DNA of 64,000 nt from assembly GCA_036172245.1 (NCBI GenBank), contig JAYWIR010000068.1, forward strand, positions 372,001 to 436,000. The letters are read 5' to 3'. Positions 6,964 through 10,466 of this stretch are shown here, piece by piece. This stretch comes from Raillietiella orientalis. Lineage: Eukaryota. Both the position numbers and the translations under genes were made by a program. A model generated the notes under the pieces. The model was given only the letters and a program-made list of their open reading frames with translations, searched no databases and was not told the origin of the DNA. Within the stretch, counting starts at the first letter, position 1, and the number at the start of each line of letters is the position of its first letter.

Positions 6964-9900
6964 TCACTTCTTCACCGTAAATTCCACCACGTTGTTCACC
7001 ACGTCGATCTTGGTAACCAGGTGTTTCATCATGGTTTGGGAAATGGTCCAGGGCGCGTATTGGGTCCTCACTTGGGAAGTAAACGGCAGCACGTTGGCAG
7101 TCTTCTTGCCCACCTGGAACGAAGAAGGGCTGGCATGAGGAGGAAGGGGTGCGCCATCTGCGACCGCAGTAGCATGGCTGCTTGTCTGGCCTGACCTGCG
7201 AGACCAGCGACGAAAAACACGCGCTCTCGAGAGGCGAGGTTTCGGTTTGCACACAAGGAGTCTCCGTCTTCCTGGAGACGGCGGTGCACCCGATGCACGA
7301 ACCTCTATCGTCTCGGATGCTTCTTATCGGAAGGAGCGGTCGAGGAGGCGATCGAAGAGGGCGCTCCAGCTTGCCTGTTTCCAGAACCGGCCGATACGGA
7401 ACCGCGCTTCCCCACTTGCCTCCTGTTTAGTCCCTCCGAAGGCTGCCGTGAGCGGCGGCGGTATCCGGGAAACGGGTCGCTCGTCCGCTGCTGAGACCTC
7501 AGCAAACGCAGGCGCCTCCGCAACGGCCGACGCACCACTGTCGCGAGCGCGCTCTCGTCGCTTTCCCTCTCGAGCCTCCGGGCTGCTTCCGGCTGGAAAT
7601 TCGCAGCTTCCTCCTTTTCCAAGTACCCGAAGCGGCGCGACTTCTCCCTGGGACGCTTTCCCTCGTGCCACTGTGGCGCGCCGGTAGCCACCCGCAGTCG
7701 GCAGCGATTCTGCGACTGAGCGCTCTGACGGATGTACGCGGCCGGTGCGTTCGGCTGTCGTTTCCCGCGACGCACAAAAAAAACCCTTAGGGATTTCGGT
7801 TGGAGGTCTGGGTGCGGGAAGTCAGCAGCGGCGACGCGAGTGTTCTCCAGCCTCGCGACCGTCATCCACGCGCATCAGAAAAATGCATCCGTCCCGCAGC
7901 CTTGGGCCGGACTGAAGGATCACGTCACCCAGCTCGGAAGTCGTGCACATCCCGCAGATTGCAGCTGCCGCTGCCCTGGGACTGCTCCCACGCGTCATCT
8001 CCGATGCGGGTATGCGGAACGGGACGCTTCCGCGACGGCGGGAGAACGAGAAAACGGTTTCTTCCCTAAAGGCTAACCTTCAGATGGAGAACGTAATCCT
8101 CCGGCTTCATCACAAGCACTTCCCGGTTGAAGAACTCGAACGCCACGTTGGGCCAAGACGTCCAGGATTTGTCGTAGGTCTGGAAGATGCTCGGCGTTCC
8201 GGACATCCGCTTCCTTGCGGGACCACTTACCCCAAACAGACCGTACGTGTCCGGGAGCTCCGTGAGGTTGTACTCGTTCCGGAAGTGCAGGACGAATTCG
8301 CTCGGCACCTGCGAGATCGCCGAGGCAGAATCCAAGAAGGCCTTGCAGTACGGGTTGCAGAAGTCAGTCCTGCCTCCGACCTGGACCCTGAAACGGGAAC
8401 GCGTGCAGCGGGGAGCAACCCCCGCGGCATGCTGCCTTTTCCCCGATCGCCAACCCCGCGCGCGCGCCAAGACGCAAGCATGCTCCCTTCCAGAAACACG
8501 GATTCTTTCCCGGTTCCCTTAGGTGAAGAACGTGAGTGAACCCACCCATCCGGGAATCTCTCCGCAGACAGCAAGGAAGAGAGAATCTCTTCGGGGTTCC
8601 CTTCGGAGGAGATAACCAGAGAAAGATAAAAGGACTCCTTCCTCTCGGAGGCCATTTGGATTCACTGGGTGATCGCCTCCCTGGGTAACCCCTGCAACTT
8701 GAGGAATCAACATGCGCGCCCTCGGACGGTGCGGACAGCGTGAAGGAGCTTGCTCTGCCCACAGGCGAAAGGTTCTTGAGCACTTGGCCAACCGAAAGGA
8801 AGGAAACCTCGAAGAAACGTGAGGTCCACTGCCGCCCAGCAGGCAGAATGTGCAAGGAGAGGTCGGTTTCACGGAAGCGGTGGTGGAAAGATGGATGGTG
8901 GACTCACGCCCTCAATCTTTCCTCGTAACCCTTTAAACCTGTCGGTTGAGTTGGGGCGTTAATATGTTCTTCCAGAGCAACAACCGTTCCCGTTTTCAGC
9001 TTTCTGCAACGAGAGGTTGTAGCGTTCTCCCCCAGGAATCCGCCAGCTCAACTCACCGATCGAATTCGAACTTGAGGCCCCGTTTCAGCTTCAGCTTCGT
9101 AACAATGTGACGCAAGGATGATGGTTCGATTCCAAGGAAACCATCAGGGAAACCAGGAAGATTCATGTAGTGTCTCCGAGGATCTGCGTGGAATGGCAGC
9201 AGAGGTTGCATGAAACGAATGTTGCCAACACTCTGAAACAGATCGTTCTTCTTGGACAGACTCTTTTCTGCATGCAGACGGGAAAAAAAAAATGAAGCTC
9301 GCAGACTCCTTCCCAGTTCTTCAGCACTTGTGAGACTCAGTGACTGTTGAATTCAGCTGGGATCGTCAGCGGAGTAAAGGTGAAACATCGGTAGCAGACC
9401 CCCTGACAGCTGGTCCGCACTTCGGCAACATAAACAAATTTCAGCTGTAGGAAGGTGGGAAGGCGGCCGTACGGAAGGTCATTTGCTCTTGGGGGCACTC
9501 TACATCGACGCCAGAAGAGACGAGACCAAAGAAGAGGAACGGGAGCGAGTGACCTTCCAGTTAACCTCGAAAGGAGCAATCGTGGGGGACCTCAACGGAG
9601 ATATTTCTGGGATACCGAAGGATCTTCAGAACCAAGAAGAACTGGAGGATGCAAAAACACCGAAGAGACAAGAACACAAAAGAAGTGGTCTTCCGTGTCA
9701 TCTATCGTAGCCGGAATGTGGGCTGTAAGCATCGGACGGGACACACCCAAAGAGCTGTTGAAAGGAAGCGTCCCCTCTCGAGAGGGGACGCTTCCTCTCG
9801 AGAGGGAGATAGGAGGAGGAGTTTCCCCCTCCGATTATTTGCTTGTCCTTCCTCAGAAGGAACGCGCACGGCTGATTGTGAGCAAAAGAGCGGCAGGCAA

Positions 9901-10466
9901 TACGTACTATCGTGTCCCTCACGAGTTCGCCTTGCAATTGGATGCCCATGAAATACAGCATTTTCTCGCTGATTTCCATCGCCTCTAACAACAGACTTTC
10001 ATCGTATCTGTTGTGCTCCTCTGTAAGGAAAGCAAACCTTACTGCTGCGTCTGAGATGCCATTTGGCCTTTGCTTACTACAATATGATGAATTGCAGTGG
10101 ATTGAAGGGAGCAGCAAGTATTCTCCCAAGGTGTCCAGAGCTACAGAAAAAACCGTGGTCTTGTCTTCATATTCAAACTCTCCTATGCCCCACACCACTT
10201 CTTTTTGGGTGATGCTTATTTTGGCCACGAACAACCCCTTGACAAAGAACAAGCACGTTACTTTCACGGTTCCAAATAGGGACTGTTTCTTACATTCGAG
10301 TAGGTAAGTGGTATATTCAGCTTGCTTCCCCAAACGGATGACCTGCAAGAAAAGAAAACAACAGCAGTCGTTTCGGAAAAGAAGACCCGGTTGCGACTTT
10401 AGGCCGGGAAAAGGTCTCCACTTACGTGGCTTGAAGAACCAAGAGGAAAACAGCGAGCTTCTCCAT
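6964..10466 (-). CDS. Secreted pepsin-family (A1) aspartic peptidase homologue with non-canonical catalytic motifs (probable pseudo-protease)
   Basis: Frame-checked exons 10426-10466 (MEKLAVFLLVLQAT), 10294-10342 (SSVWGSKLNIPLTYSN), 10078-10237 (GLFVAKISIT..FSVALDTLGEYLLLPSIHCNSSYC), 9908-10020 (HNRYDES..LQGELVRDTI), about 9057-9183 (FPDGFLGI), 8078-8387 (VQVGGRTDFCNPYCKAFLDSASAISQVP..PNVAFEFFNREVLVMKPEDYVLH), 6964-7113 (PWTISQTMMKHLVTKIDVVNNVVEF..*). Motif order matches cathepsin D/pepsin (FTVVFDTGSSNLWVPS..C..C..HNKYD; FDGILG; C..GC.AIVDTGTS; L.PEDYVL; WILGD.F...Y..FD..NNRVGF). Small middle exons between 8800 and 9650 not fully resolved. Confidence 0.85.
8500..8710 (+). repeat. Degenerate repeat with GG(G)TTCCCT-type units, related to 60985-61345
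   Basis: Units ccggttcccttagg, tcggggttcccttcggagg, aggactccttcctctcggagg; ends tgggtaacccctgcaacttgaggaa versus tggagtctctataacttgaagaa near 61325. Confidence 0.45.
9763..9796. repeat. Perfect 34-bp palindrome in an intron of the aspartic-peptidase-like gene
   Basis: aggaagcgtcccctctc|gagaggggacgcttcct, overlapped by a second copy of the cctctcgagagg core (9794-9805). Confidence 0.95.

Follow-up and report, generated by a model that had tools for sequence, protein, structure and literature searches.

The aspartic proteases of peptidase family A1, the family of pepsin and cathepsin D, depend for activity on the glycines of their two active-site motifs and on the psi loops, which hold two carboxylates and a water molecule in place, and their zymogens need a propeptide. 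The pepsin fold is found as well in proteins that bind rather than cut, such as the TAXI-type xylanase inhibitors of plants (PF14541/PF14543), and in the cockroach protein Bla g 2 the catalytic triplets are altered and the propeptide is absent. Bla g 2, Per a 2 and Lma-p54 are presented as secreted A1 proteins of cockroaches that are inactive and whose function is either unknown or one of binding (PMC9541408). In the tick Rhipicephalus microplus, the protein RmPAP is described as having an A1-like domain without proteolysis and has been proposed to bind and carry haemoglobin or haem (PMC6345952), while the ungulate pregnancy-associated glycoproteins (PAGs) are reported to comprise active and inactive A1 subfamilies, set by substitutions in two active-site domains (PMC11431107). 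The same source describes PAG genes of nine exons with gt-ag junctions, shorter forms that lack exons, and precursors that keep a 15-residue signal peptide and a propeptide of 37-38 residues (PMC11431107). Here we analyze a spliced, intron-containing gene on the minus strand (10466-6964) of a 64,000-nucleotide (nt) stretch of Raillietiella orientalis DNA (contig JAYWIR010000068.1; the whole stretch is hereafter the window). On balance, we consider it probable that this is a real and intact animal gene whose product is a secreted binding protein of the pepsin family without catalytic activity. Dead secreted A1 homologs are a kind already known, to which the gene adds a new and unusually diverged case; given that they have been found in arthropods, mammals and plants, an earlier note on this DNA, which ranked the gene as the best novelty candidate of the window, put the matter too strongly.

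In the order of its conserved elements the predicted protein follows canonical pepsin and cathepsin D (PF00026), with DT-x, C-x4-C, H-x-x-Y-D, a flap tyrosine and DG-hydrophobic-L-G in the N-lobe, and with C-x3-C, D-S-x, the (l)P-x-(hydrophobic)-x-F strand (WPNVAFEF), EDYVL, W-x-I-x and the C-terminal strand in the C-lobe. It departs from them in having no intact D[TS]G motif, in missing the C-lobe psi-loop glycine, the propeptide, the third disulfide and the central segment, and in carrying an extra insertion of 13-14 residues before the first motif. Like the cockroach proteins, as these are described, it is a secreted member of the A1 family and is presumed, from its sequence, to be inactive; unlike Bla g 2, to which no specific similarity was found, it is far more diverged, has leucine or alanine in place of glycine and is missing a portion of the central core. 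The mechanism that may be put forward by analogy, binding without cutting, is of the kind proposed for RmPAP, but that protein, according to the published account, is devoid of the second catalytic aspartate, whereas here both aspartates are present and it is the glycines that are lost. With eight or nine exons and with its motifs in the third exon and in the third from last, the gene resembles the nine-exon PAG genes of the published description; in contrast to these it encodes no propeptide, and its host, judging from an invertebrate-like mosaic of CpG depletion, is not a mammal. Finally, TAXi_C clusters do appear among the ESM neighbors of the C-lobe exon, at a lower rank (0.88) than PF00026 clusters, but TAXI-type proteins come from plants and the protein of the window from an animal.

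Homology to the pepsin family

Metagenome contigs were scanned with a back-translated active-site motif, which yielded 49 open reading frames (ORFs), each containing a pair of D[TS]G motifs separated by 150-230 residues. PF00026 recognizes every one of the 49, with scores of 279-418 bits, and the hidden Markov model (HMM) built from them has 339 positions. The earlier note had assigned the protein to the pepsin fold and had proposed an HMM search against aspartyl proteases. On this profile of 49 PF00026 proteins, the spliced protein as first modeled scores 25.7 bits in HMMER (expect value, E, of 3.1e-10 for one sequence) and its best form 32.2 bits, the best of 2000 shuffled sequences reaching 7.0 bits. 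The match consists of two collinear pieces, in which profile positions 35-105 fall on residues 59-128 and profile positions 216-335 on residues 199-320. With hhalign, the probability is 95.6-96.7% for local alignments and 97.9% for the global one (E 3.5e-12, 313 columns, 24% identity), over 248-313 columns and at an overall identity to A1 proteins of some 22-24%; 40 shuffles stay at or below 2.2% and the reversed sequence at 0.2%. HMMER and hhalign agree in aligning DTL and DSA with the pair of DTG columns, YFMG with YGsG and WTIS with wilG, which bears out the changes in the flap and in the C-lobe psi loop that had been pointed out before. Further aligned pairs are C-x4-C with the first disulfide, H-x-R-Y-D with h-k-k-Y-d, WPNVAFEF with lPdltFtl, EDYVL with edyvl and P-WTIS with plwilG.

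Two of the introns are small and in frame. The protein in which both are kept scores 10.3 bits on the same profile, and removal of intron 3 adds 12.6 bits and that of intron 7 adds 4.2 bits. Once intron 3 is taken out, the first motif, C-x4-C and H-x-R-Y-D are spaced as in the profile, without a gap, and the same spacing from first motif to H-x-R-Y-D is seen in a tick cathepsin D chain. Among comparisons that start from single exons, the ESM features of the C-lobe exon have a top match of 0.95 with 184 of 256 features in common, and 28 of the 30 matches lie in cluster sets that carry PF00026. A phmmer search of the PDB with five exon pieces returned A1 matches from the C-lobe exon only, these being weak (cardosin A, E 0.67; cathepsin E, E 1.1) and both on the second-motif region; the other four pieces returned none, and no Bla g 2 or PAG chain came up at E<=10, which with pieces this short is a weak test.

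The A1 signal emerges only after splicing, and the choice of splice sites could thus in principle create the match. As a control, the profile was aligned to DNA by a splice-aware procedure, both for the gene and for further 3.7-kb segments from the two strands of the window. The local mode of this procedure was dropped as a poor discriminator, with a traceback padded with micro-exons, and was replaced by a glocal version in which the alignment must cross profile columns 30-336. In glocal mode the gene scores +4.4, while none of the 58 control stretches exceeds -20.4 (mean -40.8, standard deviation 9.5); for the opposite strand the value is -39.1 and for the reversed sequence it is -41.5. The gene thus stands about 25 bits above the best of the controls. 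The glocal traceback hit four true junction regions and recovered, unprompted, the junctions 10079|10018 and 9059|8386 together with exons 7 and 9; exon 3 was likewise recovered, and the junction at intron 3 came up in the local traceback too. The faults of the glocal traceback were a mis-traced exon 8 and an exon 4 extended into the intron. The assignment to the pepsin fold is upheld by the profile scores, by hhalign and by this control, and it would seem close to certain that the spliced protein shares A1 homology across both lobes of the aspartic protease domain, over which its similarity to the profile extends.

A profile of bacterial A1 proteins, made from 18 Shewanellaceae ORFs and 120 database relatives, fails on the gene, with HMMER scores below those of several shuffles, a Smith-Waterman z of at most 3.2 and hhalign P values of 0.013-0.14. 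Genes with a pepsin-like PF00026 match are present in 42 of the 179 Shewanellaceae genomes, some with 2-4 matches, and all of the 18 ORFs examined carry two D[TS]G motifs.

Active-site residues and the predicted precursor

Both catalytic aspartates are kept, together with the threonine or serine that follows each of them (DTL, DSA), and so are the flap tyrosine, the N-lobe DG-F-L-G, the C-x4-C and C-x3-C disulfide pairs and the C-terminal strands. The motif glycines are lost, the first to leucine and the second to alanine, and the residues downstream are also altered (DTLGE, DSASA); instead of one D-[TS]-G motif in each lobe, the protein reads D-T-L and D-S-A. The hydrophobic-hydrophobic-Gly motif is retained in the N-lobe as DGFLG and is replaced in the C-lobe, where W-T-I-S stands for w-i-l-G. 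In the flap (YFMG on YGsG) the conserved tyrosine and the second glycine are in place and the first glycine has become phenylalanine. Both cysteines of the third disulfide have gone together, leaving two of the three classical disulfides. An A1 fold with disrupted catalytic motifs, as found here, is the mark of the non-catalytic A1 homologs. The claim of the earlier note that both catalytic motifs are remodeled holds for their glycines, both replaced, and stops short of their aspartates, both kept. Because what the two motifs have lost is their glycines, the loss of cutting is something that we infer, and consider probable, rather than read directly from the sequence.

The N-terminus has a hydrophobic core with a mean Kyte-Doolittle value of 2.74 over residues 4-12, in support of the signal peptide noted earlier, which we call by eye at about 19 residues. 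The predicted mature protein has about 296 residues, two N-x-S/T sites and exactly four cysteines (precursor residues 78, 83, 190 and 194), which are those of the A1 C-x4-C and C-x3-C positions. The DTL motif starts at precursor residue 65, and with a signal peptide of some 19 residues and an insertion of 13-14 residues ahead of it there is no room for a propeptide of 37-45 residues. The predicted signal peptide ends only about 10 residues short of the first A1 strand, and the previously remarked absence of a propeptide is hence confirmed; after the signal peptide and the insertion, the first motif is at the residue place that it has in a mature pepsin-type enzyme. The insertion, TQKEVVWGIGEFEY, does exist but was said to replace GTPPQ, and in the global hhalign alignment it directly precedes the residues aligned to the GTPxQ turn; it adjoins that turn rather than strictly replacing it.

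These features would fit a descent from the pepsin/cathepsin-D family in which the protein turned into a non-catalytic scaffold. With the two glycines and the C-lobe psi loop gone, no hydrogen-bonded "fireman's grip" could form to position the carboxylates and the catalytic water, secretion of the protein would be direct and involve no zymogen step, and the remaining cleft may bind a peptide or another ligand without cleaving it, by analogy with what has been proposed for known dead A1 proteins. That the protein still folds is suggested by cysteines that are kept or lost in pairs, by its codon periodicity and by eight open, phase-compatible exons at an identity of 22-24%.

Gene layout and genomic surroundings

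The elements of the gene are collected in Table 1. Every junction of the model is GT..AG, and with the TATA box, the stop codon and the AATAAA this substantiates the intact splice sites and gene-like structure that had been proposed; the positions given previously for the start and stop codons, DTL, DSA, YFMG, WTIS, TATAAAG and CACC-ATG-G are all exact. Introns 1 and 2, at 83 and 56 nt, are too short to conceal an exon. Intron 4 holds a near-perfect palindrome of 29 nt at 9755-9804 (90% complementary, with overlapping arms), and intron 8 a related palindrome copy of 20 nt at 7224-7243. Neither a tblastn search of the 64-kb window with the model, which returned no paralog, nor a scan of all 1924 window ORFs with our A1 profile, which returned no second A1 gene, found a relative nearby.

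Table 1. Elements of the pepsin-family gene, in transcript order, with positions in the window.
Feature	Position	Strand	Content
TATAAAG box	10525-10531	-	59-65 nt 5' of the ATG; putative promoter element
Exon 1	10426-10466	-	ATG at 10466 in CACC-ATG-G context; first 13 2/3 codons of the predicted signal peptide
Exon 2	10294-10342	-	End of the predicted signal peptide and mature N-terminus (…IPLTYSN); propeptide absent
Exon 3	10078-10237	-	N-lobe strand, insertion of 13-14 residues, DTL (10127-10135, GACACCTTG) in the place of DTG, conserved C-x4-C
Intron 3	10021-10077	-	57 nt, in frame, stop-free
Exon 4	9908-10020	-	H-x-R-Y-D, flap YFMG (9944-9955), DTI
Exon 5	9057-9232	-	PDGFLGI (N-lobe hydrophobic-hydrophobic-Gly retained) and linker to …KFEFD(R)
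Optional 31-nt exon	8908-8938	-	FKGLRGKIEG; in frame; A1 score not raised
Optional 96-nt exon candidate	8546-8641	-	…SFYLS…; flanked by AG..GT, open, multiple of 3, right phase
Exon 7	8231-8387	-	Acceptor 8388/8387, alternatively 8381/8380; C-x3-C, then DSA (8324-8332, GATTCTGCC) in the place of DTG
Intron 7	8180-8230	-	51 nt, in frame, GTAAGT..CAG
Exon 8	8078-8179	-	…SWPNVAFEF…KPEDYVL…
Exon 9	6964-7113	-	WTIS (7039-7050) for W-I-L-G; C-terminal strand …VVEFT; stop TGA at 6966-6964
AATAAA	6912-6917	-	47 nt 3' of the stop codon; putative poly(A) signal

The rest of the window is metazoan DNA, with Treslin domains, a piggyBac-type transposase and an element akin to the long interspersed nuclear elements (LINEs). 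The Treslin exons (17981-18727 and 19396-19854, plus strand) match the N-terminal domain (E 2e-06) and the STD domain (E 3.3e-10), weakly but above the cut-off; they belong to a gene of replication initiation that sits in a CpG-depleted block, and the exon has no relative in the PDB. The piggyBac-type transposase (PF13843; 24980-25826, minus strand) is split between two overlapping ORFs in different frames, covering profile positions 95-256 and 256-349, and is probably a frameshifted, dead copy. The LINE-like element runs from 62650 past the end of the window at 64000 on the plus strand and has an endonuclease/exonuclease/phosphatase domain (PF03372) downstream of a zinc-knuckle ORF (PF00098). 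At 33559-34459 (plus strand), within an AT-rich block, two ORFs with weak matches to coiled-coil-type Pfam families (crescentin rod, GAS), below the curated cut-offs, are probably exons of a gene for a coiled-coil protein.

In base composition the window is a mosaic. The AT-rich blocks (1-4000, 16001-24000 and 28001-36000) have a GC fraction of 0.30-0.39 and a CpG observed/expected ratio of 0.33-0.61, and the GC-rich blocks (4001-16000 and 36001-64000) have a GC fraction of up to 0.64 and a ratio of 0.89-1.11. The GC fraction jumps from 0.40 to 0.58 near position 6000, and the pepsin-family gene lies in the GC-rich block beyond. This pattern is compatible with mosaic methylation of the invertebrate type, in which case the gene would lie in the unmethylated part. 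The 26-kb GC-rich block between 36000 and 62000 is rich in ORFs of 110-430 residues, which occur in each of the six frames and have no Pfam match, and is free of tandem repeats; it shows a single weak internal repeat (55426-55527 versus 61903-62010, 75% identity).

Alternative explanations and significance

In canonical A1 proteins, some 40-55 central residues build the sheet between the two lobes, and it is in this part that the gene model has alternatives. The protein has a gap of 20-55 residues in the central A1 core, which the earlier note did not mention. We enumerated 310 in-frame and stop-free models for the middle of the gene (9056 to 8388), and in HMMER the best of them has no exon at all, with 9057 joined to 8387 (32.2 bits, 315 residues); the model with the 31-nt exon (8938-8908) scores 25.7 bits. 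The gene may instead use one or more diverged middle exons (for instance 8641-8546, with or without 8938-8908), in which case the central sheet would be present and only the motifs degenerate. We hold this fuller domain to be a serious candidate, though of less than even likelihood. The 96-nt candidate is open and correctly flanked and phased, and hhalign slightly prefers the protein that includes it (74.8 versus 72.9), with SFYLS…EG… on the FxFYL…GG part of A1 proteins. HMMER, on the other hand, gives that protein 27.8 bits, which is 4.4 below skipping, and even with the 96-nt candidate about 20 residues, the Y-W strand among them, remain unaccounted for. The gene thus has eight exons, possibly nine, and a product of about 315-350 residues.

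The missing segment also raises the odds of a pseudogene, that is, of a decaying or unexpressed A1 relic in which a duplicate has lost the part coding for the propeptide and the equivalent of exon 6, and its catalytic motifs have drifted; its frame would be open either as a recent leftover or through the way in which the exons were picked. Several observations weigh against an intact gene for a binding protein and are best considered together. In either form of the middle, the 20-55 residues of the central core (about profile positions 135-192) are missing or unrecognizable, and none of the 310 models outscores skipping them, which resembles a gene with a lost exon. Divergence is extreme: Pfam recognizes no exon, with 0 of 4 contiguous exon pieces matched at E<=1 and 0 of 8 at E<=10 (the queries being contiguous exon translations; the cut-off of PF00026 is 19.9 bits). 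No unspliced ORF of the gene is among the top 15 of the 1924 window ORFs on our A1 profile, the local splice-aware mode barely separated the gene (32.0 bits) from the best of 30 controls (28.0 bits), and the ESM features of the N-lobe exon gave no usable match. A word-indexed search of 5.8 billion proteins with the N-lobe and C-lobe exons, directed at longer proteins, yielded no relative, and no ortholog turned up in the protein collections, exon-sized queries being weak in such searches. Both catalytic aspartates, moreover, are present, and with them residual activity is possible. The PAG families, for their part, are reported to contain many pseudogenes as well as exon-lacking shorter forms (PMC11431107).

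Two further results on single exons are given here for completeness. A phmmer search of 1.84 billion representatives with the C-lobe exon returned three matches, all repeat proteins aligned in 5-10 stretches, which were judged spurious, and the AlphaFold2 model of the lone 101-residue C-lobe exon was unusable (predicted local distance difference test score, pLDDT, of 32.2).

Against a pseudogene speaks, in the first place, the state of the coding sequence. Its eight exons amount to 948 nt, with canonical splice sites, compatible phases and a frame that is open throughout, at an identity to A1 proteins of only about 22-24%. Codon periodicity is strong (GC of 0.50, 0.34 and 0.67 at codon positions 1, 2 and 3), and there are no stops in frame, whereas the two remaining frames contain 18 and 6; 20000 shuffles of the coding sequence have a mean of 14.9 stops and none is stop-free, a statistic that is partly circular in that the exons had been picked for being open. 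Cysteines have been kept or lost strictly as disulfide pairs, and the promoter, the predicted signal peptide and the poly(A) signal are intact. Taking both sides into account, we consider a pseudogene unlikely, though the main rival, and prefer an intact gene for a secreted binding protein.

A further variant is that the short form, in which exon 5 is joined directly to 8387, is itself expressed as a minimal pepsin-fold scaffold, a secreted binding protein under selection in a lineage without sampled relatives. This we regard as doubtful. If it were true, the protein would lack both the propeptide and some 40-55 residues of the sheet between the lobes, while keeping both carboxylates and neither of the glycines. 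We know of no A1 homolog for which such a minimal architecture without the central segment has been described, and it is the sole potentially new feature of the gene, resting as it does on a predicted splice.

A lower likelihood still attaches to an atypical aspartic protease that remains active, tolerating leucine and alanine in the place of the motif glycines and dispensing with a zymogen stage. The D of DTL, the D of DSA and the Y of YFMG do lie on the catalytic and flap columns, but neither motif nor the C-lobe psi loop has its glycine any longer, each having been replaced, the residues after the motifs are changed, and a secreted A1 enzyme without a propeptide would be unusual; an active enzyme is hence very improbable. 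That there is no A1 kinship at all, and that the likeness stems from splice sites picked to fit a known pattern, is hardly credible, for while no single exon is significant alone and free local splicing of control DNA does reach 28 bits, the margin of the glocal control, the one collinear alignment that hhalign and HMMER give through both lobes, the independent indication of PF00026 by the ESM features of one unspliced exon, and the PDB search, which matched the same C-lobe exon, if weakly, to cardosin A and cathepsin E in the region of their second motif, all argue otherwise.

As a pseudogene, the locus would be an ordinary one. For annotation, the lesson is that this gene is not seen by domain scans that proceed exon by exon or in six frames, and that it takes the spliced sequence to find it. 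Should it be expressed, it would be an extreme addition to the dead pepsin-family proteins that have been reused as secreted binders. It would also help to separate those parts of the A1 fold that serve folding and binding from those that serve catalysis, since family models miss every one of its exons and yet the disulfide pairs, the flap tyrosine and both aspartates survive.

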